Source of the DNA: Nitrospiraceae bacterium
GTDB lineage: Bacteria > Nitrospirota > Thermodesulfovibrionia > UBA6902
DNA: 64,000 nt
NCBI GenBank assembly: GCA_003599425.1
Contig: QZKC01000083.1
Span: forward strand, 10,372 to 74,371
Reading direction: 5' to 3'
Part shown: positions 31,494-61,021 of the stretch, piece by piece
Layout of the letters: each line of letters starts with the position of its first letter
How positions within the stretch are numbered: position 1 is the first letter of the stretch
The notes under the pieces: generated by a model
The model's database searches: none
What the model saw: only the letters and a program-made list of their open reading frames with translations
Told to the model about the DNA's origin: nothing
Made by a program: the position numbers and the translations under genes

Positions 31494-32657
31494 TCATCGT
31501 TCTTTGTTCCTCATATCGCTGTCTTCATCATCTCTACCGCTTATATATTCTTTTTCCTTCTTTAATTTTTTCCACTTCTTCTGTTCTTCTTCCCACTTAT
31601 CGCGATCTTTTTCTTTCTTTTTACACTGCTTCTTCCACTTGTCTTCCCATGCTTTCTGCTGCTTCTTCCAGTTTTTTGGACTCCTGGCTTTCCAGTACTT
31701 TTCATCTTTTGGCTCCAAGGTGACTGTTATTGGTTTCTGCTTCTTCCAGTTTTTGTCTGATGCCTTTATGAAACCACCTAAATATCTGTACTCCTCTGAA
31801 TAGTTAACAAAAGCCATGATCAGATAATTGTCTTTCACAAAGTTCGTAAATAGGGCTGTCCCTGTTGTATCTGTAAAGCCCGAGGCAACTGGTACAAGAT
31901 TATTCCATATCAATGAATAAAGCTCGCCCTTGTCGCAGATTTCCGTATATGTTTCTTCATTAATAGCAACTGATATGTCTGATAATCTGTACAACCGGAC
32001 TGGAAGATTGTCCAGTGCCCCATCAATACCACGCACTTTTACAGTAATTAATGATGCAGGCGCTGGTTTTTCAGGTAAGATCTCAAAGGCCACTTTGATC
32101 GATGTTAGGGGATTAAAAACCCTTATTCCCGGATCATCCATACACCCAAGAGTATTTCCGTCCTGATCTATTTCCAGCTTAAAATATGTGACAAGAGGCA
32201 CCTCTATCTCTGCCTTGCAAAAACCGCACTTTGTCAGATCATAAAAAATACGTGCATCATCTATTACTTTATAGCTGCCCCATCCCTGTGGGATGATCTC
32301 AACGGGCGCGCATTCTCGCCCCTGAAACCAGCGTGGAGGGCCAGGCTCTGCATCTCCTCCTATAAAACTGTTACGTATTATGGTCCCGTCAGGTGCTGTA
32401 TATTTTATGAGCAAATAGAATTCCTGCTGCATAAACCCCTGAGGGACTATGAGATCATGCCCGCTGTTATTAACAACATTCACCTGCATCTTTACCGGTT
32501 CTCCCGGCTGATATTCAGCTTTTGACGATACAAGATTGATCGTTATCGGGGAGTCCTGGGCGCTAACCGCCGCGATCAGCATGAATGACAATACTGTACA
32601 ACCCGCGATCTTTCCAAATAATAGTTTCAGTATCTTCATGTATTCCTCTCGCCTCAT
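31494..32657 (-). CDS. secreted protein with Ig/carboxypeptidase-regulatory-like beta-sandwich regions and a Lys/Trp-rich C-terminal tail
   Basis: 387 aa. Its ATG overlaps the stop of the giant gene (ccATGAgg at 32654-32657). A signal peptide follows the second Met. The last 86 aa carry repeated WKKQ-type units. Confidence 0.65.
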   Translation of the reverse strand: MRREEYMKILKLLFGKIAGCTVLSFMLIAAVSAQDSPITINLVSSKAEYQPGEPVKMQVNVVNNSGHDLIVPQGFMQQEFYLLIKYTAPDGTIIRNSFIGGDAEPGPPRWFQGRECAPVEIIPQGWGSYKVIDDARIFYDLTKCGFCKAEIEVPLVTYFKLEIDQDGNTLGCMDDPGIRVFNPLTSIKVAFEILPEKPAPASLITVKVRGIDGALDNLPVRLYRLSDISVAINEETYTEICDKGELYSLIWNNLVPVASGFTDTTGTALFTNFVKDNYLIMAFVNYSEEYRYLGGFIKASDKNWKKQKPITVTLEPKDEKYWKARSPKNWKKQQKAWEDKWKKQCKKKEKDRDKWEEEQKKWKKLKKEKEYISGRDDEDSDMRNKER

Positions 32658-35600
32658 GGCTCGGATTTATTGTTGATCATGATCTGTCCAAGTGCAAAGT
32701 CACTCAGGAAACCAGCCCTGTCCCAGTTGTTGCTGTATGTATACATCAGACATTTGGGATCGCTCGTATGTCCATTAATACCCAGCGCATGACCTATCTC
32801 ATGGAGTATGGTAAAGGTCTGAAGCTCAAGCGGCGTATACTCTTTGGATATAAGAAGAGCATCATCAACGGGTGGGTTTTCCACATGTCCGTCTCCGTCT
32901 GCATCAAAAACGCTGAAATCATAACCAACTGAGTAATCATTACAAACAGATGTGCATGCCGGCTTCCACCCTGTCATCATGTGATCGCCGTCAAGGACGT
33001 CATTTACGATCAGGCTGTCTTCAGATAGAGTTGTTACAGCACCGGTATACGGATTCATATATGGAAGTATCTCAGGACCTTTTCCGTTCTCTCTTCTTTT
33101 ATCTTCAACAAGATCGATGGGATCAAGAAGCCCAACATATGATGGATTTAAGGGGTTTAAAGATTCATCCCTGTAAGGCCTGTTATATACGTAATGCATA
33201 AGGTTCAAATGGTATGTATAAGCACTCTCTGATTTTCCAGAGTAGGGGTTAAAATGGTAGTGCATTCCATTCCCAATATAACTTGCGCCCTTTGTAGACC
33301 AGGCCCATAATCTCGAGGCAAGATGCACGATATATCCGTTACTGTAACCCATGAGTGTGCTCGTGTCTGTTGTGTTATTGGTAACGATCAGGATGTCGAT
33401 GTTAGGCGGTTCAACTATATTCCCCTGACTGTCTAAAAGCTTCCCAAAGGATGGCATGCGTGTTACATCATGCATGTCGATCCCCGCCTTTTCATATGCA
33501 TTGCCTCCTGTTATATCAGTCCTGAACTCCAGGACATCAGGCGCTGTATTGGGTGGACATGAATTGGCGTAATTATCACCACGAACAAAGAGGTCCTTAT
33601 GCTCTGGATTGAGCCTCTGATGATACGTGCCTGTAACATTGCAATTGCTGTCTGTATTTTCAAAGATGATCCCGCGATACTCTTTGAAGTTGCTCAGTCC
33701 GTCACCGATTAACGTATTGGACTGCGTTGTATCGATATCCTTCAGCCCGTCATCAAGGCCAGAGCCGAATGAGAATGGATTATCAAATTGAAATCCGTCA
33801 GCAGAGTGCTGTTTTTCCCATGCATCCGGCAGAGAGTCCCTGTCTGAATCCAGCGGCAATGTCAAGTCACCCTGTACCGATGTACCGTCAGGCGCAGCAG
33901 ATGTGATCCTGACAACAGCCTGGCCTCCGTAATCAAAGGAATACAGATTCACCGATGCCGTGGAAAGGGGGCTTCCGCCTGCATAGACTGTCGCCGCAGT
34001 TACGCTTCTGTTTATTGCGTTAAAGCTGTAATCATTTGTCGATGGCAGACCAGGGTCGTCTGTATCATTCGTCGCAATACCCGGCAGGCTCGTAGTTATC
34101 AGGGCAAATAACACGTTACCTGAAAAGTTAATGTAACTGTTCGTCCTGATATCTTTTAGCCGGACTTCAACCGTGACCGAATTTCCATCTTCAGGCAGCC
34201 ATGTGCCAGTAACATCAGCGCCCGTGCTGTCTTTAGCAGTAAATTCAACTTTATAAAACGACCCGAGAGGAGTAGGGTCGGGGCCGGCAACAATAGGGCC
34301 TGTGCCGTCCGGGTCACGAGGGCCGTCACTTACAAAATCGTTATCAGTGTCAGGGTCTGCTGGAAGAGTACCATAGGTCAACTCATATGAATTTAAATAT
34401 CCATCGCCGTCAATGTCATCATCACAGGCGTTACCAATACCATCACTGTCTATATCACTTTGATCATTAGCGATCAAAGGACAATTATCTGATACGTCCG
34501 GTGTGCTGTCATTATCATCGTCAGGATCACAAACATCTCCATATTTGTCGCTGTCATTGTTGCTCTGAGAACTGTTTGCATTCACTTTACAGTTGTCCTC
34601 GCCGTCCTTGATCCCGTCACCGTCCGTATCAGCTTTATTGGGATCGGTCTCACCCGCATCTACTATACCGTTACCGTTAGCATCTTCTGCCCGGTTTGAA
34701 AGTCCATCACCATCACTGTCAAGGGTTGCAGGGTCTTGGGTTGAACAGTTGTTCCCGGCACAGCTCGCAGTTGTAGTCCCCTGAGAAGGGGCCTGCTGAC
34801 ACGCATCCCCGATCCCGTTATTGTCGGAATCAGCCTGGCTGGCATTTGCAACATTCGGGCAATTGTCCCGTGCGCCTGTCTTGGGACTGTTAAAGTAAAG
34901 ATTGGCACATATCCCGTCTCCATCCGTATCATTATTGGGGTCTTTGGGACATGGATCAGTGCTGTCAAACTGTCCATCATAGTCGCTGTCATCACAGACA
35001 TCCCCGATACCATCCTTGTCCATATCTTTCTGGGCTGCATTGGAGACGTTCGGACAATTGTCCACACGATCATCAATGCCGTCGCCATCGCTGTCCTGTA
35101 TCGCATCAGGCTGACCATCATGGTTGGAATCAAGGAAGTCCAAACCGTCACAGTTTTCATCAATGCCATTAAAATCCATCTCAACTCCCTGAGGATTGAC
35201 GCTGGCAGCAAGATCATCGCAGTCAGTTTTTGTCATAACGAACCCCGGACGTGGTTTTGCGCACGTAGCATACATCCCGCCAAAGCCGTCCCTGTCGAAA
35301 TCGAAATAATATTTGGCAGATGGATTGGGATCATACAATACTGTCATGCACCCTTTCAACGACTCTATCATCGGCAGGTAGGTACAATACGCTTCTTCGT
35401 TCAAGGGGTTGCCTGAAAGATCCAGGCTTACCAAATTCTTCGCATACTCAAGCCCCATCAGGTCTGTGATTCCGCTGTTTCTCAGATCAAGCGCGGTAAA
35501 CGTCAGCATTTGCGCTTCTGTCGGTTCACCATATATACCCAGTTTGGTTTTAATTGCTTCTTTCAGATTTGTATCAGCAATGAATATTGCTGTACCCTCA

Positions 35601-38600
35601 TCCACCTGTCCATTGCAGTTATTATCTACTCCATCACACATTCCATCAGGTTCGCCGGGGTTAATAGTCGGATCTGAGTCGTTGCAATCTACCGTAGAGT
35701 CATATCCGTCTCCATCAAGGTCAATAGTATCAACCATACAGTCACAGTTGTCATCTTTTCCATTGCCCGGTATCTCTGTTATCTCCGGATTGATTGTCGC
35801 ATCAGCGTCATCACAGTCCGTTCCCTCTGTAACATACCCTGCCCGCTGCTCTGCGCACATTGTGTCCACATCTCCGTATCCATCTCCGTCAAAGTCGTAG
35901 TAGTACATTGTCCCTGCAGGCTTCTCATACATTAGTGCTGTACATGCACTGTTTGACTGAATCTGAGGCAAATAGGTGCAGAAGGCCTCATTGTCCAGAG
36001 GGTTGCCGGTGAGGTCCAGGCTCTTCAGGTTCTTTGCATACTCAAGTCCCATCAACTGCTCTATTCCAAGATAGCTCGCATCCAATGCTGTAAGCTGAAG
36101 CATCAGCGCCTCAGTAGGATCTCCATGTATGCCGAGCTTCTTCTTGATCGCATTTCTCAGATTCGTATCCGCTATGAATACCGCTATCTCTTCGTCTGTC
36201 TCACCGTTGCAGTTATTGTCCACTCCATTACATACACCGTCAGGCTCTCCGGGATTGATCGTCGGGTCCAGATCATTACAGTCATTACCTTTGGCTGCGG
36301 CTACAAAACCGGCACGCGAATACGCGCACGTTGCCAGCATTCCTCCATATCCATCTGCATCGTAATCAGCCTTGTAGTTTGGCGCAGGGTTGGGATCATA
36401 GATGATATTTGCGCACCCGTTTTCGGACTCTATCATCGGCAGATATGTGCAATAGGCCTCGGCATCCAGCGGGTTGCCGGAAAGGTTCAGGCTCACGAGG
36501 TTCTTTGCATACTCAAGGCCCATCAGATCAGTGATTCCTCTGTTGCTCAAATCCAGTACCGTAAGCGTCAGTATCTCTTCTTCTGTCGGGTCACCTGTTA
36601 TTCCCAGAACTTCTTTAATAGCGTTCTTCAGATTTGTGTCCGCTATGAATACCGACATCTCCTCATCCACCTGTCCATTGCAGTTGTTATCTATTCCATT
36701 ACATACTCCATCCGATGCTCCGGGATGAATAGTCGGATCCAGATCATTACAGTCATTGCCTTTGGCTGCGGCTACAAAACCGGCACGCGAATACGCGCAT
36801 GTTGCCAGCATTCCTCCGTATCCGTCCGCATCATAATCAGCCTTGTAGTTTGGTGCAGGGTTTGGGTCATAACTTATATTCGCGCACCCATTCACAAATT
36901 CGATCATAGGCAGGTATTTGCAATAAGCCTCGCTGTCAAGCGGGTTGCCCGTGAGATTAAGGCTCTTCAGGTTCTTCGCATACTCAAGTCCCATAAGATC
37001 AGTGATCCCTCTGTTGCTCAGATCAAGTACCGTGAGCGTCAGCATCTGCTCCTCTGTGGGATCACCCGTTATCCCCAGTGCCTCTTTTATGGCATTCTTC
37101 AGATTTGTGTCAGCAATGAATACTGTAATCTCGTCATCAATCTGTCCATTGCAGTTGTCGTCTATTCCATTGCAATCTCCATCCGATGCTCCGGGATGAA
37201 TGGTCGGGTCCAGATCATTACAGTCCGTTCCGCCTGATGCAATTGAATCATATCCGTCATTGTCAGCATCTGGATCACATGTATCGCCAATCTCATCGCC
37301 GTCAAAATCTGACTGGTCAGTGTTGGCTATATTCGGACAATTATCTTTGCAGTCGGCAACTCCGTCACCATCAGTATCTGTATCTGGAATTCCGCAACCG
37401 CATATGCCAGGCTCTGTCTTTAACGGATCATCAGGACACTGGTCAATGCAATTTTCAGTATCGCCAAAATCGATCATTCCGTCACAGTCATTGTCTAATC
37501 CATCAGAGCAACTCTGCTCAGGAGTCTCTGTGGGGTTGCTTGGCACACAGGTATCTGTTTGAATTCCGACCGTACAGGTCAATTGTCCGACTGATGCGCA
37601 TACTCCAACTCCACACGTTATCGGCAAACCGTACCAGTCTTCACCGGAACCGTCAATCGTTGTATCATTGCAATCGTTATTCTTTCCATCACAAATTTCA
37701 AGTGCTCCGGGATATATCTTATTGTCGCTGTCATTGCAGTCATCACCCGGATATGTCTGGCACCCGGCAGGGACACAAGCAGTTCCCGTACAGGAGTCAG
37801 ATACTGATGAACTGACAAGTCCGTCATTGTCGCTGTCGCAATAGTAGGAAATTGAATAGCCGGTCAATTTATACAGGGATCCAGTAGTCCCACTTTGTGC
37901 ATCTACATCTAAAGCAGCAAGCTTTCCGACACCTACTTGGTACCACTCAAGATCAGTAACAGCATAGTCTGGCAATGATACACACAGGTTGGATTCAACG
38001 ATATTGTTTTGCGCATTTGACTGATACTTACTGTCATACGTTGCCCATAGAATAACACCGGTCAATGACGGATCAATTCCGTATACACTCTTAAGATCAG
38101 GATCAAGTTTATCCCATTCGCGAATCAGAACAAAATTCGTTGGTTCAAATGCATTAAAAAACTGTCCGTCAGTAAAAGTGTCAAACGTCATTGGTGTGAG
38201 ATTGGATGAAACACCGTCTTCGACGTAATCGTATATGGTTACAGAGCTTCCATCGTTATAACTAACCAAATAATTATTCGCGGTTCCTTTGCTGCATGCT
38301 GGATTACCTGAAAATTCAGAACATTCAAATATAGTTTCTGTATATGTATCAAATGGATCAACAGCATTCGTATAGGTCCAGAAACTCCCTAACCCAAGAG
38401 GGAAGTAGGGTGCAAAGCTTATCGGGTTACTTAAAACACCTTCATCTATCTGCCCGTCACAGTCGTTATCCAGACCGTCGCAGATCTCAGCCTGCGGCTG
38501 GTTATTCTGTACGCACGTCTGAGTTCCAGATGCACAGGTTAATGTTCCTGCTGAACATATTCCCGGCACTCCAGTATCACATACTCCATTTGTTGCGCCG

Positions 38601-41600
38601 TTACAGTCAGAGTCTGCACAGTCAGTAGATCCATCCCCGTCATTGTCAATATTGTCAAAACAGTTTGTCTCAGTTGACGTCTGGCAGTTAGTATCTGCCA
38701 AATCTATCAATCCATCACAATCATTATCCACTGCATCACTGCATGTAGGATCATCTGCCGGCCCTTCTGTCTGAGGCGTTCCCGGCGTGCAAGTGTCTGT
38801 TTGAATCCCTCCTGTACAGGTGAACTGCCCAGTTGACGCACATATTCCTACTCCGCATGTTGTCGGGACCCCGTACCAGTTCTCACCTGAACCGTCAGCA
38901 GCAGTGAGATTATCGCAGTCATTGATCTTGCCGTCGCATAACTCTGGAGCACCTGGATAAATAGTATTATCGTTATCATTGCAATCACCCTGATTTTCCG
39001 TGAATCCGTCGCCATCGTTATCTATATCATTAGAATTACAAACGTCATTTATTCCTCCAGTTCCGGACAGAGGTACATATACATTTGGATTATTCGGAGC
39101 ATTCGAAGGGATATTCAATATTCCTGTGTATCTGATAGAGGTTGAAGGCTGAAATCTTACCCTGATCGTGCAGGATGCCGAGGGAACTAAAGTGCTATCT
39201 GAACAATTATCAGTACCTGCCACAATGCTGAATGTATCTGAAGGAGATGAAATTGTGCCGATCGTCAGATTCTGTATCCCGGTGTTACTTACTGTGATCG
39301 TGTTGTCCCAGAACTCTCCCGTATTCACACATCCAAACTCTATGTTTGTTGGAGTTACCGTAATAGCCGGTTCAATCAAAGCGAGATCATTTACAGTTAT
39401 CACTTCACCAGATTCAACAACGTCATTTCCATCAGGAGTACATGTGACTATCATTGTATCTGAATATAAGTTGTCCTCATCTGCCTGCACTGTCCACGTT
39501 CCTCCCATGATAGGCAGACGGTAGTATCCATCAAAGTCAGTATCAGTTCGGGTATTGATCCAGCCAACAGATGTCTGACTGGGACCATTCAGTGCATTAT
39601 CAGTCCAAGCACTGATCCCTACATCCGATGCAGGGGTTCCGTCACCCCTGTATACCCTGCCTTCTATTGCGCAGTCAGCATAATATGCATAAAGCGTTAC
39701 CGGCTTGTGCTCTCCATCAGTGAGTCCTGTGACATCTACATCCTGAGATGGGACCATCTCTTTAGGTTCGTTATTGATCTTCACGGGGTAGTCGTGACAG
39801 TTCAGGCACGTGCCGACCCTCCAGTCACCTGCATTAAGTCCTACCACTGCATGTCCCGTCGCATTGGTGTAATCAGCATTGCCCAGACTCTGGAGCACAG
39901 GGTCTGAAGTATTGATCCTTCTGGCATAGCAGAGAGCACCTTCAACAGGCAATGCCCCATATTCATCCATGACATTACATTCAAGCCATGCTGTTTCCTT
40001 ATGCAATACAAAATGAACAGTTGCGGGAGGAATGACATTTACAGAATCATAATAATTATTGGCAGGAATCTGGGGGCCAAAATATCCGGGAGCAATATCA
40101 TCATCAATTGCGATATTCCATGTCACTCCGGACAGAACTGGTATTGTATAGTTCCCGTTGGCATCAGTAAGTACACCAACCCCGTTGCCGCCAGGGACGT
40201 CTGCATCAACTTCTGTCCCCCAAATGGGCTTGCCCGTTCCGTATTCTGTTACCGTCCCCGTGATCTGTGAATCTGAAGGTGCTAAATAAAGGTTAAATCC
40301 TGTTATGTCAGAATTGAAAATTATTGCAGTAACAGACCGTTCAAGGTATCCAGTTTTCTGGGCACCAATTTCATATCTTCCTGAGCGCGGGATATGCAGG
40401 GTGTAAGCGCCATTGCTGTCAGTTAGCGCGGCTGATACCCCTTGTCCTGTTGTTACATCTTCTGCAACAACAATGGCCTCGGGCACAGGTGTTGTAGTTC
40501 CTTCCTCATAAACGACCCCCTGGATCTTATACGGAGCCGGGACTATCGGATCGGTCATCGTAAAGTCTACTGAAGCTGTATTGCCGCAGGAATTTTTTAC
40601 TGTCATGGTTAACGTCGTACCAGGCAGGAGATAGCCATCTGCATTTCCAAAGGGATTAAAGACTGTCGTAATATTTATGTCTGCCGGGTCTGCATCTTGA
40701 GTCAACGAATCGTGATCATTCGCTGCATTGTCATATATAACTGCCATAATTTCATCGTTGCCGAGTTTAAACTCGACCGCGCCGCCATCTTCCGCAGCCT
40801 GTGTGTATAATGTGAAGCCGGTCCTTGTATCAGCAGGGGCTGAAGAAGGGCCGACGGATAAGGTGATGGGAGGACATGCCTGATATACAAAGCTTTCTGT
40901 GCTTACTGAATAATTGCTTCCGCTGTCCAGTGCGAAAACCTTAAATGTATAAGTATTCCCCGGTATGAGAGGTGGGCCATCGTATAACAACCCTGAGTTA
41001 GTCAAGTTACCTGCATCCCATAAATACTCAGAAGATTCATTCAGCAGCATAACTGTATAGGCATATCCCGCGCCAATACCTGACCATGAAAAATAAGGCG
41101 AACCCATAACTGTCTGTCCGTTGGAAGGTGAGAGATTTGCCGGGACATTATTTACAAAACGTTTAATACTGTCTGTCTTGACCGTGGTATTAAAAGGGTC
41201 GGTTATGGTTATTGTGTAGACAATTGGGAATGGATAAGGCGGCAGACTGCCTGTGCTGAGAGTGATAACCTTTTCCCATGACTTCCTAAAGGTATTGTAA
41301 TCAAGAGTGATTAAACCATTTATGCCGGGGCCTTCAACGGTAACAGATGTTGCGAGACGACCGGGGTCCTCAACGAATATTCTCGCTCCGTATTCATCCT
41401 GCCCCCCCGGATTTTTCCAGTGGCCTGATACGGCTTCCGCATGATAATCATACCATGGGTTCGGATTTACTATTGTGCCGTCAACGAGGGTTATGTCCAC
41501 TCCGTGGACAGCAGTCCCCCCGCTTATGACAACCGGAGTAATATTGCCGCATCCGCTGTAAATGCCCCACGGGTCTGTGGGCTGAAGATCAGTACCCGTC

Positions 41601-44600
41601 TGGATCACCGAAACCACATAGTAGGTACCGTCGGGAAGGCCAGAAAGTGTATAAGCGCCAAGAGAAGGAATTTCAGTGGCGACAGCCGGATTACCCGGGT
41701 TTTGTGGAGAACAGTTGATAGGCGATGTGAATGCCGCAACATAAATATTTCCGCTCTGCGTTCCGCTGTATGAGATAGCGCCGGTGATGGAACCAGCACT
41801 TACAGCAGGCTCAACGAACCTTCGGAAGTTGCTACCGTCAAGATCTGCGAAGTAAAGTTCCCTCGCAGAATCAAAACCGTAGATAGACTGATCAATGGGC
41901 GGGACAATGGACTGCAGGTCTGCTATCTGTGCTCCTGAACTGTTGTAGAGGGCGCGATGCGTCAGGCTGACCAGATTGCCTGATTGGGTGTAGAAAAGGA
42001 TGTTCTCATCCTGACACAGGTCAGAAGGACAGAGATTCGTCTCAGTACCATTGGCCAATACAACATATAATGGTGTTGACTGAAATCCGGGATCAGACTC
42101 GGGCAGACCGTTAAATACGTGATAGTAGAAGAGGAAACCATTAGAATCGTTTCTGGGAGAGAGCATATTCCATTCACCCAGATATTCGCTCTTTATGATT
42201 GTCCTGCCCGTGCCGTCGGCATTCATCATTATCAGCCTTTCATAGTGGCTTGTGAAATAGCCTGCATCCTGCCTGTATTCAATCGCAATGATCTTTGATC
42301 TGTCCGGTGATAGCCAGAACATTGCTAATCTGTACGGCGCTACAGGGGACGCGATGGTAACAATGTCAGTGCCGTCGGCATTCATGCTCTTGACCTCGCC
42401 GTTATCATTGAAAATCACCTTGTCATTGTTGTCAAAGTAGGCAGCAGTATCATTGTTTTCTGCATGAACAGCTACGGGAGTTTTGGTGCCGGAAGGAATA
42501 TCATAAATATAAATGGTCGATGAGACATCATCGAATTCCCTGAAGACGACCTTGGTCTTCAGTGAGTTCATGCTTCCGAATGTAAACAGGTTATTGCAAT
42601 TGTCTTTCAAAGTGCTCAGCCCTGCTACCCCGGGATCATAAAGATAAAGGTCCAACCTTGTGTCCTCCCCGCAGTTTACTGAATCAAATGCGATCATCGG
42701 GATCATTTCCAGCGCGAGATTTGCACAATTCGTGCATCTTGCGCCAACAAGAATCTCTCTGTGAGAGAGTTGATTTGAATCAAAGCTATGATTGATGATT
42801 ATCGTATTCCCGTTGTTCCCTATCGCTCCCGCATAGGAAGGCGCAAGATCACCAATTGATAAACCAAAACTGCCATCAGAAGAAACAGAGATATTTAAGC
42901 CAACACTCCCAAATTGAATATTTCCATCTCTTTGTCCTTTATATGATATTGTGCAGTTTCCACTACTGTCACAAGTCAAAGTGCTAAATGAAGCAAAAAA
43001 ACTGGTACTGCTATCATCTCCGAAGCCTGCTAAAGCCCATGTCCCTGCAAGGTCAGCGGTGGAGTAGGTCTTGTCACCTTTCTTCATAATGAAAGTAGCT
43101 TGCCAATCAGTAGCAATATCCAATGATGCAGTTAATGCAAGCGTGCCGTCTCCTGTCATTACCCCTTTGGCATTTCCACTGTTAAGCAAAATTGAGCCAT
43201 CAGGGTTTACAGAATATGTATCTGTATCGTTATCAGTCAAAATTATTCCATCGCTGTTAGCCGTATTGGCATATAGATAACTATCTACCCCATCAATCAA
43301 GGCGGTGCCTGACCATACAATATGATATCCGGGCCAGTTAGTTCCTGTGCTATCATGGTCATAGCCAATAGCATAATACTCCCCGCTCAAATCGGCACTG
43401 GTATAAGTCTTCGTCTCATCCATCCTTATCAAGACTCTTGCCCTCTGTCTGCTACTCTGGTCAGTGCCGTCCATGATCATCATATTTCCATTATCAGAAA
43501 TCGCATATCTTCTAATTCTTGTCACTGATGGATATGTAGATACAACCGTAATGCTTCCGTCTGCGTTTGCTGTGACAGTGTAGGAATAGTCCTCTATTGC
43601 AGAACTTAATATTCCATTATCATTGTCCTGGTGGGTATCGGTTCCCGTGCCATCCGCGTTAAAGGTAAGAGTTCCCCCTCGTACATGCCATTTTCCATCG
43701 TTATCATGCCGTAAACGCCCATATCCCCATTTGCCGATTATGGTAAATGTTGATGCTGATTCACATCCCGGATCATTTGCGTCTATCAAATCATCACAGT
43801 CATTGTCCAGTCCGTCATTACATGCAGGGGCTCCAGCAGGGCCTTCTGCCTGCGGCGTGCCGGGAGTGCAGGTATCATTCCAAGTTCCTGCAACGCAGGT
43901 CGCGACTCCTGTGCTCTCGCAAATTCCTTTTCCGCATACTGACGTATAACTAAGATTTTCATCTGTCTGACCGTTACAGTTGTTGTCTCTACCGTCGCAT
44001 ATCTCAGGAGCGCCGGGATAAACAGATGCATCATTATCGTCACAGTCCACTTCACCGCATGCACCGCCTTCAATGGCATAACCATCATGGTCCGAGTCTG
44101 TACAACTATTATCACATGCATCTCCTACACCATCCCCGTCAGCATCTGCCTGATCGGGATTGAAAACATCGGGACAGTTGTCATCAATATCTCTAACACC
44201 GTCATTATCCTGGTCGCTAATTTGTAGCACTTGAATTTCTCCAGATGACAAGGCACGGTTGTAAACCATAAGGTTGTCGACTTCACCATAAAATGTTCTG
44301 CCATTCGAGTAATCCGTTAATGTAACCGTCTTATCATTCCCGGTATTTAGAGCAAAATCTGCAGGCACGGATACATCTTCTAACCGAATGCCATCAAAAA
44401 ACGTGATAATATTTCTTCTCGTAAAGTCAACGGATACTACTACAGTGTGCCACTGATTAATATTCAGGATGGTTCCCGAATAAATATGTTCAAGATAGCC
44501 AGATTGAACACTCGGATCATTATTCAAAGTCAGCATAAGTTGATTAGTGTTAGTCCACTTTAGTCTGATCCACCTGTATGACTGACCGCCGATTACAATG

Positions 44601-45469
44601 GTTTTATAATTACCACCCAGATTATAGGGCATGAATTCTACACTGATGGTAAAGGCATCAAAATTAAAATCAGGGACTGTAGCTATTGCCGTATAACCGA
44701 AATATAGGCCATTAAGATACAGATTGTCGTTATTGAGAAACTGAGTATTTTCGAGATACATTGGATCATTGATTCCCGTGCTGTCATTGGCATTACCGTT
44801 AAACTTGTAAAATGCGATCAATCCATAATTCGTATCACACGCATCACCAATCCCATCGCCATCAGTATCAGCCTGGCCAGGGTTGTAAATATCTGGACAG
44901 TTATCGCATGTCTCGCCTACGCCATCCCCATCAGTATCGATGGCAGAAAGGCATTTATCCAGTTTTGAAACAAAGGCGTCAAAGTAATTGTATGATGTAT
45001 CATAAGCGCCAGCAGTTACTGGATAATCGGATGCAGAGGTTTGTCCTGTTATGAACACGTCGCCTGTTTGAGAATCCAGCGCAGCGGCTTTTGCAGAATC
45101 ATTCCCGCTTCCACCAATAAAAGTTGATGAGAGGAGGTCTGTCAGGCCATTGTTAAGCCTTGAGATAATGACATCATTGCCATAGCATATGCCGCCAGTT
45201 CCACAATAAGTATCATACGCTCCTGCAGTAACTGGATAATTGGATGAAGATGTCAGACCTGTTATGAAGACATCCCCTGTAAGGGAATCTATTGCGATGG
45301 CGTTTGCGGAATCAGCGTTGTTTCCACCGATAAATGTTGATGAGACAAGGCCTGCAAGTCCACTGCTAAGCCTTGAAACAAAAACGTCACTGCCTCCATT
45401 AAGAGATGCATCATAAACTCCGGCAGTAGTAGGATAATCAGATGAAGATGTTGCCCCACCAATAAACAT
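32654..45469 (-). CDS. giant secreted multidomain protein, main body (4,271 codons from the first ATG; the frame stays open upstream to the TGA at 45941-45943)
   Basis: SBBP-like beta-propeller repeats (IGG..D.A.AIAID..G..FITG.TSS.DYP.T.GAYD). TSP3 repeats (DTDGDGVGETCDNCPDIYNPGQADTDGDGIGDACD). A LamG-like block (LIAFYKFNGNANDS...LMVYNRALSSGEIQ). MopE-like motifs (DCDDNDASVYPGAPEICDGRDNNCNGQTDE). PD40/TolB-like and CarboxypepD_reg-like segments. Four tandem LRR-type modules. A C-terminal HEIGHALGINGH motif (32768-32803). Confidence 0.85.
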   Translation of the reverse strand: MFIGGATSSSDYPTTAGVYDASLNGGSDVFVSRLSSGLAGLVSSTFIGGNNADSANAIAIDSLTGDVFITGLTSSSNYPVTAGAYDTYCGTGGICYGNDVIISRLNNGLTDLLSSTFIGGSGNDSAKAAALDSQTGDVFITGQTSASDYPVTAGAYDTSYNYFDAFVSKLDKCLSAIDTDGDGVGETCDNCPDIYNPGQADTDGDGIGDACDTNYGLIAFYKFNGNANDSTGINDPMYLENTQFLNNDNLYLNGLYFGYTAIATVPDFNFDAFTISVEFMPYNLGGNYKTIVIGGQSYRWIRLKWTNTNQLMLTLNNDPSVQSGYLEHIYSGTILNINQWHTVVVSVDFTRRNIITFFDGIRLEDVSVPADFALNTGNDKTVTLTDYSNGRTFYGEVDNLMVYNRALSSGEIQVLQISDQDNDGVRDIDDNCPDVFNPDQADADGDGVGDACDNSCTDSDHDGYAIEGGACGEVDCDDNDASVYPGAPEICDGRDNNCNGQTDENLSYTSVCGKGICESTGVATCVAGTWNDTCTPGTPQAEGPAGAPACNDGLDNDCDDLIDANDPGCESASTFTIIGKWGYGRLRHDNDGKWHVRGGTLTFNADGTGTDTHQDNDNGILSSAIEDYSYTVTANADGSITVVSTYPSVTRIRRYAISDNGNMMIMDGTDQSSRQRARVLIRMDETKTYTSADLSGEYYAIGYDHDSTGTNWPGYHIVWSGTALIDGVDSYLYANTANSDGIILTDNDTDTYSVNPDGSILLNSGNAKGVMTGDGTLALTASLDIATDWQATFIMKKGDKTYSTADLAGTWALAGFGDDSSTSFFASFSTLTCDSSGNCTISYKGQRDGNIQFGSVGLNISVSSDGSFGLSIGDLAPSYAGAIGNNGNTIIINHSFDSNQLSHREILVGARCTNCANLALEMIPMIAFDSVNCGEDTRLDLYLYDPGVAGLSTLKDNCNNLFTFGSMNSLKTKVVFREFDDVSSTIYIYDIPSGTKTPVAVHAENNDTAAYFDNNDKVIFNDNGEVKSMNADGTDIVTIASPVAPYRLAMFWLSPDRSKIIAIEYRQDAGYFTSHYERLIMMNADGTGRTIIKSEYLGEWNMLSPRNDSNGFLFYYHVFNGLPESDPGFQSTPLYVVLANGTETNLCPSDLCQDENILFYTQSGNLVSLTHRALYNSSGAQIADLQSIVPPIDQSIYGFDSARELYFADLDGSNFRRFVEPAVSAGSITGAISYSGTQSGNIYVAAFTSPINCSPQNPGNPAVATEIPSLGAYTLSGLPDGTYYVVSVIQTGTDLQPTDPWGIYSGCGNITPVVISGGTAVHGVDITLVDGTIVNPNPWYDYHAEAVSGHWKNPGGQDEYGARIFVEDPGRLATSVTVEGPGINGLITLDYNTFRKSWEKVITLSTGSLPPYPFPIVYTITITDPFNTTVKTDSIKRFVNNVPANLSPSNGQTVMGSPYFSWSGIGAGYAYTVMLLNESSEYLWDAGNLTNSGLLYDGPPLIPGNTYTFKVFALDSGSNYSVSTESFVYQACPPITLSVGPSSAPADTRTGFTLYTQAAEDGGAVEFKLGNDEIMAVIYDNAANDHDSLTQDADPADINITTVFNPFGNADGYLLPGTTLTMTVKNSCGNTASVDFTMTDPIVPAPYKIQGVVYEEGTTTPVPEAIVVAEDVTTGQGVSAALTDSNGAYTLHIPRSGRYEIGAQKTGYLERSVTAIIFNSDITGFNLYLAPSDSQITGTVTEYGTGKPIWGTEVDADVPGGNGVGVLTDANGNYTIPVLSGVTWNIAIDDDIAPGYFGPQIPANNYYDSVNVIPPATVHFVLHKETAWLECNVMDEYGALPVEGALCYARRINTSDPVLQSLGNADYTNATGHAVVGLNAGDWRVGTCLNCHDYPVKINNEPKEMVPSQDVDVTGLTDGEHKPVTLYAYYADCAIEGRVYRGDGTPASDVGISAWTDNALNGPSQTSVGWINTRTDTDFDGYYRLPIMGGTWTVQADEDNLYSDTMIVTCTPDGNDVVESGEVITVNDLALIEPAITVTPTNIEFGCVNTGEFWDNTITVSNTGIQNLTIGTISSPSDTFSIVAGTDNCSDSTLVPSASCTIRVRFQPSTSIRYTGILNIPSNAPNNPNVYVPLSGTGGINDVCNSNDIDNDGDGFTENQGDCNDNDNTIYPGAPELCDGKINDCDNLTAADGSGENWYGVPTTCGVGICASTGQFTCTGGIQTDTCTPGTPQTEGPADDPTCSDAVDNDCDGLIDLADTNCQTSTETNCFDNIDNDGDGSTDCADSDCNGATNGVCDTGVPGICSAGTLTCASGTQTCVQNNQPQAEICDGLDNDCDGQIDEGVLSNPISFAPYFPLGLGSFWTYTNAVDPFDTYTETIFECSEFSGNPACSKGTANNYLVSYNDGSSVTIYDYVEDGVSSNLTPMTFDTFTDGQFFNAFEPTNFVLIREWDKLDPDLKSVYGIDPSLTGVILWATYDSKYQSNAQNNIVESNLCVSLPDYAVTDLEWYQVGVGKLAALDVDAQSGTTGSLYKLTGYSISYYCDSDNDGLVSSSVSDSCTGTACVPAGCQTYPGDDCNDSDNKIYPGALEICDGKNNDCNDTTIDGSGEDWYGLPITCGVGVCASVGQLTCTVGIQTDTCVPSNPTETPEQSCSDGLDNDCDGMIDFGDTENCIDQCPDDPLKTEPGICGCGIPDTDTDGDGVADCKDNCPNIANTDQSDFDGDEIGDTCDPDADNDGYDSIASGGTDCNDLDPTIHPGASDGDCNGIDDNCNGQIDDEITVFIADTNLKNAIKEALGITGDPTEEQMLTLTVLDLSNRGITDLMGLEYAKNLKSLNLTGNPLDSEAYCKYLPMIEFVNGCANISYDPNPAPNYKADYDADGYGGMLATCAYSRAGFVAAAKGNDCNDLDPTIHPGASDGVCNGIDNNCNGQVDEEMSVFIADTNLKNAIKEVLGITGDPTEEEILTLTVLDLSNRGITDLMGLEYAKNLVSLNLSGNPLDAEAYCTYLPMIESENGCANIIYDPNPAPNYKADYDADGYGGMLATCAYSRAGFVAAAKGNDCNDLDPTINPGEPDGVCNGVDNNCNGETDEEIAVFIADTNLRNAIKKKLGIHGDPTEALMLQLTALDASYLGIEQLMGLEYAKNLKSLDLTGNPLDNEAFCTYLPQIQSNSACTALMYEKPAGTMYYYDFDGDGYGDVDTMCAEQRAGYVTEGTDCDDADATINPEITEIPGNGKDDNCDCMVDTIDLDGDGYDSTVDCNDSDPTINPGEPDGMCDGVDNNCNGQVDEGTAIFIADTNLKEAIKTKLGIYGEPTEAQMLTFTALDLRNSGITDLMGLEYAKNLVSLDLSGNPLNEEAYCTYLPMIESLKGCMTVLYDPNPSAKYYFDFDRDGFGGMYATCAKPRPGFVMTKTDCDDLAASVNPQGVEMDFNGIDENCDGLDFLDSNHDGQPDAIQDSDGDGIDDRVDNCPNVSNAAQKDMDKDGIGDVCDDSDYDGQFDSTDPCPKDPNNDTDGDGICANLYFNSPKTGARDNCPNVANASQADSDNNGIGDACQQAPSQGTTTASCAGNNCSTQDPATLDSDGDGLSNRAEDANGNGIVDAGETDPNKADTDGDGIKDGEDNCKVNANSSQSNNDSDKYGDVCDPDDDNDSTPDVSDNCPLIANDQSDIDSDGIGNACDDDIDGDGYLNSYELTYGTLPADPDTDNDFVSDGPRDPDGTGPIVAGPDPTPLGSFYKVEFTAKDSTGADVTGTWLPEDGNSVTVEVRLKDIRTNSYINFSGNVLFALITTSLPGIATNDTDDPGLPSTNDYSFNAINRSVTAATVYAGGSPLSTASVNLYSFDYGGQAVVRITSAAPDGTSVQGDLTLPLDSDRDSLPDAWEKQHSADGFQFDNPFSFGSGLDDGLKDIDTTQSNTLIGDGLSNFKEYRGIIFENTDSNCNVTGTYHQRLNPEHKDLFVRGDNYANSCPPNTAPDVLEFRTDITGGNAYEKAGIDMHDVTRMPSFGKLLDSQGNIVEPPNIDILIVTNNTTDTSTLMGYSNGYIVHLASRLWAWSTKGASYIGNGMHYHFNPYSGKSESAYTYHLNLMHYVYNRPYRDESLNPLNPSYVGLLDPIDLVEDKRRENGKGPEILPYMNPYTGAVTTLSEDSLIVNDVLDGDHMMTGWKPACTSVCNDYSVGYDFSVFDADGDGHVENPPVDDALLISKEYTPLELQTFTILHEIGHALGINGHTSDPKCLMYTYSNNWDRAGFLSDFALGQIMINNKSEP
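35213..37222 (-). repeat. four tandem coding modules (471, 471, 594 and about 474 bp) inside the giant gene
   Basis: The anchor cagatcattaca recurs at 37211-37222, 36740-36751 and 36269-36280, an exact 471-bp period. Each unit encodes a MopE-like Cys motif, VFIADTNLKNAIKxxLGIxGDPTE...LDLSNRGITDLMGLEYAKNLxSLxLxGNPL (LRR-like) and a DADGYGG segment. Confidence 0.9.
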
Positions 45470-45940
45470 ATCGCCTGTCGTGGAGTCTATGGCAAGGGCA
45501 TTTGCGGAATCCGTGCTGCTTCCACCAATAAATGTAGATGCAAGGAGGCTTGTAAGATCACTATTGAGCCTTGATATAAAAGCATCACTTCCGCCATTAA
45601 AAGAGGTATCATAGCTCCCGGCAGTTGAAGGATAATTGGACGATAGCGTACTTCCCGAAATTATTGCATTTCCTGAGGAATCTATAGCGAGTGCATAAGT
45701 ATAATCAGAATTATTACCTCCAATGAATGTCGATGCGAGCAGATCAAGATTACTGTCAAACTTTGAAACAAAGGCATCTGAGGTTTCAATATCAGCGCCA
45801 TACAGATAACTGCATATTACGCCATTCCCGCAAACTCTGTCATATGCGCCCTGAGTAGTAGGGAAATCATCTGAATGTGTATACCCGGTGACATATACGC
45901 TATCCCCAGGGCCAAGTGCAAGGGCCCTGCCTACATCACT

Positions 45941-47140
45941 TCAGCCAAAACCACCGATCATCGTCGATGCTTCAAGAACGGAAAGATCATTGCTGAATTT
46001 TGATACAACAACATCAAAAGAGCTCTTGTACGCTACACCCGTTGTAACAGGATAATTAGCTGACCTTGTCCCTCCAGAGATATAAACTTTTCCTGAAGAA
46101 TCTATGGCCATGGCATTGCCTTCTTCTGTCTCGCTTCCGCCGATAACTGTTGAGGCAAGGAGGACAGAAAGATCGTTACTGAACTTCCTTATGAATATGT
46201 CCGCACCTGTGGTCCCTGCCACAAAAACATTACCATTTGCGTCGATGGCAATGGCGTTACCGATATCCGCAGCAGCTTCGCCTGCAAATGTTGAGGCCAG
46301 AAGCGGGTCAATGATGAGAGGTTTTGTTCTATCATAAGTCCCAACCTCAAAACCGTATGTGACCGAATCCTCGGGTACATTGTATGCAACGTTTATAAAT
46401 TTCTTCTTCCCCTGCTCTTCCTGATAGGCAACAGGCTTCGTCATTTTAAGGATTCCCAGTTCCGTCTCTATCTCAAGCTCCCCGTCTTTGTTTACACGTA
46501 ATCCTTTCACGCCTTCCAGGGATAGCTTAATGTCTTCAACCTCTGCTCCTCGGTTCACAGTAAAGACCTTCTCCACGGAGATTCCGTATGTCCTCAGATT
46601 AAGCTCTATGCCCTTATAGACCTCTCCCAGATTTACTTCCTGCCATGCGGGTATGTTTGACTTCCACTCTTCCCTGGCACCAATAAAGTAATGAACGCTG
46701 GTCTCTGGTTTTTTCAAACCCTTCATGGTGATAGGCTCAGGACATAACAAAGTCTCTTTGACAGCAACAGACTTCTCAACCCTATTATGATCTCCTGAGT
46801 CGCAGTTGCCTGAATTTGTTGTTGGTGGGAGATGTTCTTTCCTGATAAAGGTATAAACCATATCCCCTTTTTCATTTAAAACTACTGTGCCGTCAAATAA
46901 GGCGGCGTAAAATTTGACGGAGGGATCCTTAATCTGTCCCTGATTTTCTATAAAAGGAATCTGGCGGGATAATACGTGCTTCATCAGTAAGCTTTTATCA
47001 TTGCCTGACTGATTGTTCACAATATGACGGACGGAAGATTTCGCCTCAGAGTGATTTACATAAAGAAAAACTGCAACAGATGTAACAAACAAGAGTAAAA
47101 CTATTTTCCCAATGCCCTTCATAGTTAGCACCCGCACCAT
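45941..47140 (-). CDS. N-terminal part of the giant protein (signal peptide, N-terminal domain and first SBBP repeats), ended by an in-frame TGA
   Basis: 399 codons with signal peptide KGIGKIVLLLFVTSVAVFLYVNHSEA. The frame is the same as 32654..45469. The sequence stops mid-repeat (...STMIGGFG-TGA-SDVGRALALGPGDSVYVTGYTHSDDFPTTQGAYD...). Confidence 0.8.
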   Translation of the reverse strand: MVRVLTMKGIGKIVLLLFVTSVAVFLYVNHSEAKSSVRHIVNNQSGNDKSLLMKHVLSRQIPFIENQGQIKDPSVKFYAALFDGTVVLNEKGDMVYTFIRKEHLPPTTNSGNCDSGDHNRVEKSVAVKETLLCPEPITMKGLKKPETSVHYFIGAREEWKSNIPAWQEVNLGEVYKGIELNLRTYGISVEKVFTVNRGAEVEDIKLSLEGVKGLRVNKDGELEIETELGILKMTKPVAYQEEQGKKKFINVAYNVPEDSVTYGFEVGTYDRTKPLIIDPLLASTFAGEAAADIGNAIAIDANGNVFVAGTTGADIFIRKFSNDLSVLLASTVIGGSETEEGNAMAIDSSGKVYISGGTRSANYPVTTGVAYKSSFDVVVSKFSNDLSVLEASTMIGGFG

Positions 47141-47520: not shown

Positions 47521-48426
47521 TTAACTATTTCTCATGGCGCCTAAATACGTGCTGAGATTGATATTCTTGTTCTTTATGGAAAGCTTTTTCCGTATGCTTT
47601 GCCTGTGGCAATTGACCGTTTCTACGGAAAGCTTCATGGTCTTTGCTATTTCTTTTGTCTGATAGCCTGAGACTATGAGGTTGGCTACCTTTATTTCTTT
47701 AGGGCTCAAACCAAAATATTTTGATGACAGGCTGTTTGAGAGAGGAGAGACGATCTCCTTCAGGTTTTTTTCAAGAATGGTTACACAATTTAATACATCC
47801 GGCTGTGTAAGCGTTCTTTTTATTTCTTCCAGATAAGGCATGACCAGATTTCTGACATTAACTAAAATACTTTCTTTGAGTTCTTCACTGTTTTTTTCAT
47901 ACATATTCAGGACCACCTTCAGTGCGGCGTTGAGATCCTCAAGTTCGGAGGTTTTTCTTTTTAATGTTTCCTGTGATGACTGTATCTCCTGTTCCGCTTT
48001 CCTGCGGCGCGAGATATCTCTTACAATGTGAATAAGTCCCTTAAGTTGTTTCTTTCCGTCAATGCGCGGGATGGCTCTTATTTCCATGTGCATATTTAAA
48101 TGAGGCTCAAAGATCTCGAAGGTCGCCGGTCTTTTCGTTTTGATGCACTGACAGCTCTGGCATCCTTTCAACGGTTCATTCGTACCGTGATAATACCTGT
48201 AACACTTTCCAAAGCTCCTTGCCGCCGATAAAATCCCCAATTTTTCTCTTGCAGCCCTGTTGGCGTTTATGATATTGAAATCCCTGTCATGAACAGTGAT
48301 CATATCTGTGATGGTATTAAATATTTCCTCCCACTCGGTCTGAGACTGTAGGACCATATCGACCTTTATTTTTTGTTTTGTGACATCAATCTGTTTTCCC
48401 ATAATAAAAGAGATTATTCTCTCCAC
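47521..48426 (-). CDS. PAS-domain / coiled-coil / LuxR-type (GerE) HTH transcriptional regulator
   Basis: 301 aa. The N-terminal PAS-like segment is EWEEIFNTITDMITVHDRDFNIINANRAA. The C-terminal HTH is LSPKEIKVANLIVSGYQTKEIAKTMKLSVETVNCHRQSIRKKL. Confidence 0.8.
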   Translation of the reverse strand: MERIISFIMGKQIDVTKQKIKVDMVLQSQTEWEEIFNTITDMITVHDRDFNIINANRAAREKLGILSAARSFGKCYRYYHGTNEPLKGCQSCQCIKTKRPATFEIFEPHLNMHMEIRAIPRIDGKKQLKGLIHIVRDISRRRKAEQEIQSSQETLKRKTSELEDLNAALKVVLNMYEKNSEELKESILVNVRNLVMPYLEEIKRTLTQPDVLNCVTILEKNLKEIVSPLSNSLSSKYFGLSPKEIKVANLIVSGYQTKEIAKTMKLSVETVNCHRQSIRKKLSIKNKNINLSTYLGAMRNS

Positions 48427-60790: not shown

Positions 60791-60910
60791 TTTGTAATTT
60801 CCTTTCGTTGTTGTTACTAATATTGTCCTTTGTAAAGCCTCATAATACATTATCCTCATGCCCGAAGTTCTTTCTCCTCGGCGAATCGCCTGGGGCGATA
60901 AGCGGGCATC

Positions 60911-60947
60911 CAGCCTGGATTCCCGCTTACTGACTGCGGGAATGACA
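60911..60947. repeat. dispersed palindromic repeat, partial copy D
   Basis: ccagcctggattcccgcttactgactgcgggaatgac, which is the right half of the repeat family. Confidence 0.6.
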
Positions 60948-61021
60948 AACAATGTGGCTTTATTAATGAAGTTCTTAATAACTCCCCTGCACCCTTTTAA
61001 ATAACTCCCCCTAAACCCCTT

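Follow-up and report, generated by a model that had tools for sequence, protein, structure and literature searches.

A probable giant surface-protein gene, interrupted by an in-frame TGA and ending in a matrixin-like module, in a Nitrospiraceae bacterium

Does a 14.5-kb run of minus-strand codons in a Nitrospiraceae metagenome-assembled genome (MAG) encode one giant protein with a peptidase-like end? The locus lies on contig QZKC01000083.1 (assembly GCA_003599425.1), of which we analysed positions 10,372 to 74,371 as one window of 64,000 nt; all coordinates below are those of the window. An original prediction, made from the sequence alone, had described positions 32654-47140 as a single 14.5-kb reading frame for a ~4,800-residue exoprotein with a C-terminal metzincin-type motif. 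We consider it probable that this stretch is one gene, coding for a Sec-exported, Ca2+-binding and disulfide-rich modular surface or extracellular protein of ~4,828 residues with a matrixin-like end. There are earlier examples both of giant modular surface proteins and of giants with peptidase domains, and the N-terminal module of this protein is commonplace. What is new is an uncurated matrixin-like C-terminal family with a variable ligand loop and a nearly constant partner gene.

One frame, one gene and an in-frame TGA

Two minus-strand open reading frames (ORFs), 45941..47140 (399 aa) and 32654..45469 (4,271 aa), share one frame in both the ORF list and the translation. They belong to one repeat architecture, as had been proposed, and the repeat of the SBBP beta-propeller continues through the stop that separates them. 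Direct translation of 32654-47140 gives 14,487 nt, or 4,828 codons, with exactly one internal stop. The frame is therefore gene-sized, as predicted, but it is not open, since codon 400 is a TGA. This codon falls in a blade loop and breaks the propeller; the surrounding sequence reads STMIGGFG before it and SDVGRALAL after it (continuing on the 3' side as SDVGRALALGPGDSVYVTGY), with the blade repeats unchanged on either side. Of all the window stops between long open stretches, no other has homology running across it; the rest are ordinary gene junctions. The 4,428 codons 3' of the TGA contain no further lesion, and a stop-free run of this length cannot be put down to chance. A frameshift near the TGA was also considered and dismissed; both alternative frames stop within 10 codons.

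Comparison with relatives supports the view that 32654-47140 is one gene. Residues 1-769, comprising DUF7948 and the propeller, have 2,747 homologues, which share 35-53% identity and the order of the domains, and the best of these span ~90% of the region unbroken, across the position of the stop. Both DUF7948 and SBBP exceed their Pfam thresholds, and the alignment to homologues is continuous. One relative, P0202, is an intact ORF of 3,720 aa on a 2.28-Mb contig and combines DUF7948, seven SBBP repeats, leucine-rich repeats (LRR), TSP3 repeats and an M10-like tail. Three others (P0167, P0230 and P0157) also join the two terminal modules in an unbroken ORF, with short middles. In a syntenic locus from another metagenome (L002), a gene running from DUF7948-SBBP to the TSP3 repeats and terminal module is followed by a homologue of d387 (the gene directly downstream in the window), a small protein, a PDZ-GAF gene and Lnt, matching the window, although this assembly is itself full of frameshifts.

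An alignment of 21 sequences (the window and 20 homologues) places the TGA in a variable surface loop, IGG-[S/G/W]-x-x-[D/E]. Because the homologue P0072 has IGGWSDD at this position, a TGG to TGA transition is a plausible and simple origin for it. The lack of a second lesion in 4,428 codons points to a very recent interruption or a nonsense variant within the population, or else to a consensus error. As assembled, the TGA is either a very young nonsense allele or an error of the consensus, or else the gene depends on readthrough. Since one 83,352-nt contig underlies both the NCBI and the IMG record, the two provide no independent evidence for the base call. An exact-pattern scan of the JGI metagenomes gave no match to a sense allele at the TGA.

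If the TGA were a fixed nonsense codon, the giant protein would no longer be made, at most a 399-residue fragment of DUF7948 and part of the propeller would be produced, and the locus would be in early decay. We regard such a pseudogene as a real possibility, though not one that we favour. The stop is found in the NCBI and the IMG copy of the contig, and both databases call separate products. The first in-frame ATG, GTG or TTG after it is the ATG at 45469 (Met558), which lies inside a blade, and a product begun there would have no signal peptide. As assembled, then, the full protein cannot be made, which weighs against our own reading; taken as written, the sequence would limit the exported product to the 399-residue fragment, the TGA blocking everything beyond residue 399. 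In addition, we found no structure resembling a selenocysteine insertion sequence (SECIS) at the stop, the base after it is A (TGAA), and the adjacent d387 is shorter than all its homologues. On the other side, early decay has to be reconciled with thousands of downstream codons free of a second lesion, with an intact catalytic motif and an intact d446 (the gene after d387), with two database records that are one assembly, and with the mixing of strains in metagenome consensus sequences.

The C-terminal module and its family

The end of the protein carries a motif whose assignment as metzincin-like is supported by sequence conservation. It had been predicted as HExxHxxGxxH about 50 residues from the C-terminus. 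The location holds, at 48 residues from the end of the protein, but HEIGHALGINGH follows the pattern HExxHxxGxxxH. This exceeds the metzincin consensus by one residue, and a gap of that length opens in the HMMER alignment with matrix metalloproteinase 7 (MMP-7). Beyond it, HTSDPKCLMY aligns with HSSDPNAVMY of MMP-7, and Met lies 8 residues beyond the third His in both. The earlier proposal of CLMY as a possible Met-turn is borne out to this extent: the Met is invariant in one family alignment (A4) and nearly invariant in another (A1), it falls within the local structural superpositions described below, and the protein stops 29 residues past it. The positions H495, E496, H499, G502, H506 and M514 are likewise nearly invariant in A1 and invariant in A4.

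Searched with the family profile, the sequences of the Protein Data Bank (PDB) gave matches that were all metzincins: matrilysin (0.002), archaemetzincin (0.004), snake venom metalloproteinases, myroilysin and fragilysin. An NCBIfam search of the module matched the fragilysin and archaemetzincin models weakly. The relative P0202 exceeds the threshold of PF00413 (Peptidase_M10), at 24.6 versus 24 bits, and the alignment of the window domain covers positions 111-138 of the 159 in that profile.

Structure prediction with AlphaFold2 gave a confident model of the 543-residue module from a 31-sequence alignment, with a predicted local distance difference test (pLDDT) of 88.6 and a predicted template-modelling score (pTM) of 0.87; the last 399 residues alone gave a pLDDT of 83.2. 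In the models, an Ig-like sandwich is accompanied by a beta-rich region and two helices, the active-site helix of 16 residues (helix B, 341-356) and the terminal one (helix C, 377-388). Both helices were predicted with pLDDT >90 and superpose on MMPs over 54-66 columns. In the Foldseek search with the cropped model, the top 27 PDB matches were all MMP catalytic domains, at 28-43% identity and E values of 0.07-0.5, all of them local, and the top matches in BFVD were viral MMP-like peptidases. With the full 543-residue model, the Ig-like sandwich dominated the Foldseek matches and told us nothing about the peptidase part, hence the cropping. The sandwich itself is a conserved part of the family profile, and its Foldseek matches are sandwiches of the invasin, macroglobulin and SoxZ types. 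The model thus supports the presence of the predicted lower half of a matrixin-type active site.

Several observations weigh against this assignment. The spacing of the zinc motif is non-canonical. PF00413 stays below its gathering threshold of 24 bits in the window: the whole ORF scores 18.2 bits, the cropped domain 21.6 (E 2e-4). The Foldseek alignment is confined to the active-site helix, the Met-turn and the last helix, at the column numbers and E values given above. The beta-rich 340 residues upstream have no significant structural match in Foldseek (query TM-score, TMq, ~0.1), so the structural match takes in only part of a metzincin fold. No stand-alone minimal member with a signal peptide was found in the family, whose short members look N-terminally truncated. 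The metzincin-type C-terminus of the original prediction is therefore upheld in its conserved motif and in its best PDB matches, and qualified in its spacing, its sub-threshold M10 score and the lack of a global fold match; likewise, the model that the prediction had called for is confident and finds only MMPs in the PDB, but its matches are local and weak.

The window domain shares with matrixins (M10A, PF00413; MMP-7, MMP-9, MMP-12 and the bacterial karilysin) the order HExxHxxG...H, the sequence H[ST]xDPxx[LV]MY, a Met 8 residues past the third His and a short terminal helix; the end regions read FLSDFALGQIMI in the window and KLSQDDIKGIQKLY in the matrixin. It differs in having one extra residue between the Gly and the third His (up to 24 in relatives), ~340 rather than ~110 residues before the active-site helix, no cysteine-switch prodomain (PRCG and RCG are absent from all 4,828 residues) and a fusion to the C-terminus of a scaffold of 4.8 thousand residues. 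Leishmanolysin (M8) and other atypical metzincins carry an insertion between HExxHxxG and the third His ligand. They offer a precedent, but we detected no sequence or fold similarity to leishmanolysin, and the insertion here is short and variable (2-24 residues). Of the serralysin/RTX signature, the window protein shows one GGSGND match, attributable to chance, and its export signal is an N-terminal signal peptide.

The module recurs widely. Its profile, searched against 1.84 billion representative proteins, gave 1,760 matches at E<=1e-3, 414 at E<=1e-10 and 219 at E<=1e-30; as the representatives are clustered at 50% identity, the last figure sets the family at 219 clusters at least. In nearly all of the 150 representatives listed, the match ends at the last residues of the protein, and the host proteins reach 3,720 aa. 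The pattern HExxHxxG-x(2-24)-H-x(3-12)-M lies inside the last 110 residues of 147 of the 166 members examined. The loop from Gly to His has the canonical 2 residues in 49 of these 147, 3 in 39, 4 in 28 and more in the rest. In 16 further members HExxH is kept, and the Gly is replaced by Ala or the third His is absent. The conservation of the catalytic Glu and of the ligands argues for a working metal site in the family. The N-terminal arrays are shuffled: among 17 giant members, TSP3 occurs in 11, fn3 in 8, CarboxypepD_reg and beta-helix in 6 each, SBBP in 5, DUF7948 and LRR in 4 each and MopE in 3. No Pfam or NCBIfam model covers the C-terminal module, and we found no specific description of the family in the literature. 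A scan of GTDB genomes with a 9-sequence module alignment returned one locus only. The architecture had been called unusual; given its recurrence in hundreds of metagenomic proteins, it is so only in part. The linked partner and barrel genes downstream formed no part of that description.

The locus of P0202 (L037 8001-27163; ENA ERZ25072999 ctg321835) contains a d387-family gene directly after this intact analogue. About 5 kb beyond lies a second giant gene, P0201, whose 2,992-aa product is 63% identical to P0202 and has the same tail. GerE/LuxR-type regulators and histidine kinases are encoded upstream; in the window, a LuxR-PAS gene (47521-48426) likewise lies upstream of the giant gene.

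The downstream cassette

The giant gene is followed by d387, which starts 14 nt past its stop behind a GAGAGGA Shine-Dalgarno sequence. We fetched 37 related loci from genomes and metagenomes and recovered d387 homologues within them by tblastn. In ~29 of the 32 loci with sufficient downstream DNA, a homologue lies 15-110 nt downstream of the matrixin-like domain, and this linkage extends to distant members in which the domain is just 25-30% identical. A word-indexed homologue search with d387 returned only itself. Pfam gave weak beta-sandwich hints (Arrestin_C, transthyretin-like, MG4) and nothing more, and the family profiles of d387 and d446 found no useful match among PDB sequences, nor any PDB relative of d387. 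The window copy is ~80-110 aa shorter than its homologues; their C-terminal domain (ELLITEPEY…GDW…PPEGFV…) is replaced by a Lys/Glu-rich low-complexity tail, and no remnant of it occurs in other frames of the window.

The next gene, d446, encodes a putative outer-membrane barrel and follows d387 in nine loci (L001, L003, L011, L013, L015, L016, L017, L020 and L034). Of the nine family members, three match Phenol_MetA_deg (best 5.9e-8), four DUF5777 and three Toluene_X; the sole Pfam match of the window protein is DUF5777 (E 0.005), and the family consensus ends in VYF. The d446 gene is absent, despite enough downstream DNA, from L002, L005, L008, L024, L026-L028, L031 and L037. The small secreted protein encoded next possibly belongs to the same operon or cassette, and L002 has a weak homologue in the corresponding place (25% identity, E 5e-7). 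The terminal domain, d387 and d446 all lack a Pfam or NCBIfam family. Two features of d387 weigh against our own reading of the locus: Pfam and PDB profile searches give it no known function or family, and the window copy, without the ~100-aa C-terminal domain of its homologues, could belong to a locus in decay.

The data show the continuity of the frame, the domains, the conservation of the family and the linkage of the genes. From them we infer the roles of d387 and d446 and the operon structure, as well as zinc binding and proteolysis by the C-terminal domain. In the reading that we favour, a modular surface protein with a matrixin-like end, the product would be exported by Sec and would then fold with Ca2+ and disulfides. 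DUF7948, the SBBP propeller and the LamG, MopE, Ig-like and LRR arrays would form a ligand-binding and spacer scaffold. The TSP3 tract, the Ig-like sandwich and the divergent matrixin-like zinc-peptidase domain would form the conserved working end. The scaffold may position a zinc endopeptidase on its target, be it matrix, the surface of a neighbouring cell or the giant protein itself, and d387, with or without the barrel, may control the activity, export or anchoring of the module.

Alternatively, the module could be mainly a sorting or anchoring device that docks on d387 and d446, by analogy with the type-B C-terminal domains (CTDs) of the type IX secretion system (T9SS) and PorP/SprF, the metzincin site serving self-processing or release only. 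We think this unlikely. Its appeal lies in the place of the module at the very C-terminus, shared by nearly all of the 150 listed representatives irrespective of their N-terminal arrays, in the linkage to d387 and often to a MetA/FadL-type barrel, in the precedent of SprB-SprF, and in the absence of any other sorting signal: a motif scan of the giant protein found no LPXTG, no RTX repeats and no C-terminal transmembrane segment or hydrophobic tail. Yet d446 is missing at the many loci named above, the catalytic Glu and all metal ligands are strongly conserved, which pure docking would not need, and Pfam and NCBIfam searches revealed no homology to known C-terminal sorting domains.

The most far-reaching reading, which we consider unlikely, is that the module, d387 and the frequent MetA/FadL-type barrel would together form an undescribed, dedicated outer-membrane system for the export, anchoring and release of giant surface proteins in diderms outside Bacteroidota. 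The metzincin-like site would then cleave or release the protein itself in a regulated way, with d387 as gatekeeper or inhibitor.

Two known arrangements resemble the locus, which is a member of neither. In serralysin operons (aprA-aprI, prtA-inh; M10B), the gene directly after that of the metzincin-type protease runs in the same direction and encodes a secreted protein of small or medium size, the cognate inhibitor. The giant gene and d387 have the same layout, which offers a model for d387 as an inhibitor or chaperone. Unlike serralysins, however, the giant protein has an N-terminal Sec signal and neither an RTX nonapeptide array nor a type I secretion system (T1SS) signal, and d387 has no similarity to the Inh family or to any other. 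Type-B CTD cargo of the T9SS (SprB-SprF in Flavobacterium) comprises a giant adhesin with a conserved CTD and a cognate barrel gene downstream, which resembles the giant gene and the putative barrel gene d446. Here, by contrast, CTD homology is lacking, the genome is a Nitrospiraceae MAG, d387 separates the cargo gene from the barrel gene, and the C-terminal domain carries a conserved catalytic motif.

At its other end the protein is conventional. Residues 1-770 make up a typical member of the DUF7948-SBBP surface proteins; these usually measure 700-1,300 aa and finish with different anchors or domains, and only a minority carry the matrixin-like tail, at 4 of the 17 giant family members scanned. 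The archaeovorins and dockerin-type giants of Omnitrophota are extracellular repeat proteins with terminal peptidases proposed to cleave themselves or to attack cells (bioRxiv 10.1101/2023.11.21.568195). They have in common with the window protein a very large size, TSP3/dockerin Ca2+-binding repeats and terminal peptidase domains, but their peptidases are of the C39, S8 or M36 type, they measure 10-85 thousand aa and are membrane-anchored, and no metzincin tail or partner cassette has been described for them (bioRxiv 10.1101/2023.11.21.568195).

Assembly, scaffold domains and neighbouring genes

Public annotations disagree on the extent of the giant gene, which is effectively invisible in the NCBI protein databases. 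NCBI lists the 399-aa piece as C4538_10415 (RJQ44424.1) and a 607-aa piece, started at an internal TTG (34477), as C4538_10340 (RJQ44455.1). The 15 locus-tag steps between them suggest, from the numbering alone, that NCBI cuts the long ORF into further coding sequences (CDS). IMG calls products of 393 and 4,271 aa, the former starting at Met7 (47122).

This splitting, the internal TTG start, the repeat-rich gene and the short-read source of the MAG would suit an assembly chimera, in which several shorter genes with repeats were wrongly joined into the 14.5-kb frame. We hold this to be very unlikely. The longest exact repeat within the gene is ~41 nt and the four LRR-containing units share at most ~84% DNA identity, values that make repeat-driven mis-assembly improbable; moreover, a random join would rarely keep one frame through 4,428 codons, intact relatives have the same module order end to end, and the synteny of the flanking genes with L002 holds. 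Least credible of all, a programmed recoding of UGA as selenocysteine or by efficient readthrough could draw on UGA being the leakiest stop, and the codon used for selenocysteine, in an otherwise perfect frame, but the fold of the downstream RNA shows no stable hairpin (z = +0.44 versus shuffled sequence), the window has no Rfam match, Cys occurs at this site, in a variable surface loop, in not one of the 20 homologues aligned, and TGAA is a non-leaky stop context.

In two contigs of ENA ERZ25039500 (L002 and L003), orthologous giant genes are broken by frameshifts into 3-7 called ORFs, which occupy frames 3, 1 and 2 in L002. These splits suggest an indel-prone long-read assembly rather than real gene decay.

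Most of the scaffold domains proposed earlier were recovered (Table 1). The signal peptide, judged by eye, and the N-terminal domain are both present, the latter as DUF7948. The SBBP propeller is real, but it has ~7-8 blades rather than about ten, as counted by the motifs D.F[VI]S[KR][LF] and S[TS].IGG. The TSP3 repeats and the LamG block were found with Pfam, as were MopE-like repeats (Cu-binding_MopE, 190 bits, 11 stretches) and CarboxypepD_reg-like sandwiches. PD40 blades, also proposed, had no Pfam match at E<=0.01 in the window; faint Tricorn_N/PD40 marks are confined to the syntenic relative L002. The choice-of-anchor/ASH domain is located at the peptide that had been singled out, VTPTNIEFG… (39278-39358), which lies in the region matched by Cep192_D4, ASH, HYDIN and choice-of-anchor D; the last of these (NF012200) covers residues 2027-2126 of the 4,271-aa ORF and, with 49.1 bits, exceeds its cutoff of 45. 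The repeat search and Pfam likewise recovered the four tandem LRR-type modules, spaced at 594/471/471 nt, and the Asp-rich TSP3 tract, for which the profile search found the structures of COMP and thrombospondin-2 at E 1e-50. With 10.7% Asp, 28 DxDxDG motifs and 134 Cys, the 4,828-residue protein has the composition typical of an extracellular protein stabilised by Ca2+ and disulfides.

Table 1. Positions in the window of the features of the giant gene and its downstream cassette, listed from the N-terminus of the giant protein
Feature	Position	Strand	Evidence
Sec-type signal peptide, residues 1-33	47042..47140	minus	MKGIGKIVLLLFVTSVAVFLYVNHSEA, then K; by eye
DUF7948, residues 63-280	46301..46954	minus	Pfam PF25778, 161.4 bits (cutoff 27), E 4.2e-47
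SBBP beta-propeller, ~7-8 blades, residues ~285-735	44936..46288	minus	Pfam PF06739, 33.9 bits (cutoff 20.5)
In-frame TGA	45941-45943	minus	codon 400, in SBBP blade loop
Laminin_G_3 (LamG/ConA-like), flanked by TSP3-type DxDxDG repeats	44231..44695	minus	Pfam PF13385, E 2e-13
Central array: MopE-like Cys-rich repeats, unassigned beta-rich regions, CarboxypepD_reg-like sandwiches, Ig	37289..44230	minus	Pfam/NCBIfam
CarboxypepD_reg-like sandwich, best copy	40283-40525	minus	Pfam, E 4e-17
Choice-of-anchor D/ASH Ig domain	39053-39391	minus	Pfam Cep192_D4/ASH/HYDIN; NCBIfam choice_anch_D
Four tandem modules, each a MopE-like motif and a short LRR cap	35261..37288	minus	repeat search (family D1); Pfam LRR_4/LRR_EndoS
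Asp-rich TSP3 calcium-binding tract	34286..35173	minus	Pfam TSP_3, 5 stretches
Ig-like beta-sandwich of conserved C-terminal module	33851..34258	minus	AlphaFold2 strands 11-143, pLDDT >90
Divergent matrixin-like domain (predicted), last 399 residues	32657..33853	minus	motif, profile and fold evidence
Zinc motif HEIGHALGINGH (predicted ligands)	32768-32803	minus	sequence
Candidate Met-turn, Met4799	32744-32746	minus	CLMY at 32741-32752
d387 (C4538_10335), secreted, putative beta-sandwich partner, 381/387 aa	31494..32639 (longer form to 32657)	minus	signal peptide, linkage
d446, putative outer-membrane beta-barrel, 446 aa	30128..31468	minus	signal peptide; 25 nt past d387
Small secreted protein, 160 aa	29568..30050	minus	signal peptide; 77 nt past d446, then Lnt

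Other genes in the window include four paralogues of 357-361 aa, each with two domains that bind cyclic nucleotide monophosphates (cNMP) and a rhodanese domain (48609-49688, 49900-50973, 55838-56923 and 56993-58078, all minus). They form two tandem pairs upstream of the giant gene, an unusual local expansion. A PDZ-GAF-adenylate/guanylate cyclase gene lies at 25241-27724. A second large ORF of secreted type (61022-64000, minus) runs off the window after at least 992 open codons; a MopE motif and DxDxDG repeats lie close to its end, which lacks a metzincin tail. Directly after it comes a gene for a FadL/Toluene_X-type outer-membrane barrel (59390-60952, minus; E 7.5e-17), so that the window contains another pair of a big surface protein and a barrel. 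A multihaem cytochrome c552-like protein (3703-5397, minus) and a molybdopterin oxidoreductase exported by twin-arginine translocation (8867-11638, plus) point to an anaerobic respiratory lifestyle of the host.

Recognition of the C-terminal module defines a sizeable metagenomic family of predicted matrixin-like peptidase domains, which would add a bacterial branch to a group of mostly eukaryotic enzymes. It also provides a testable handle on how the largest surface proteins of some uncultivated Nitrospirota, Proteobacteria and other sediment and groundwater bacteria may be displayed, processed and used.

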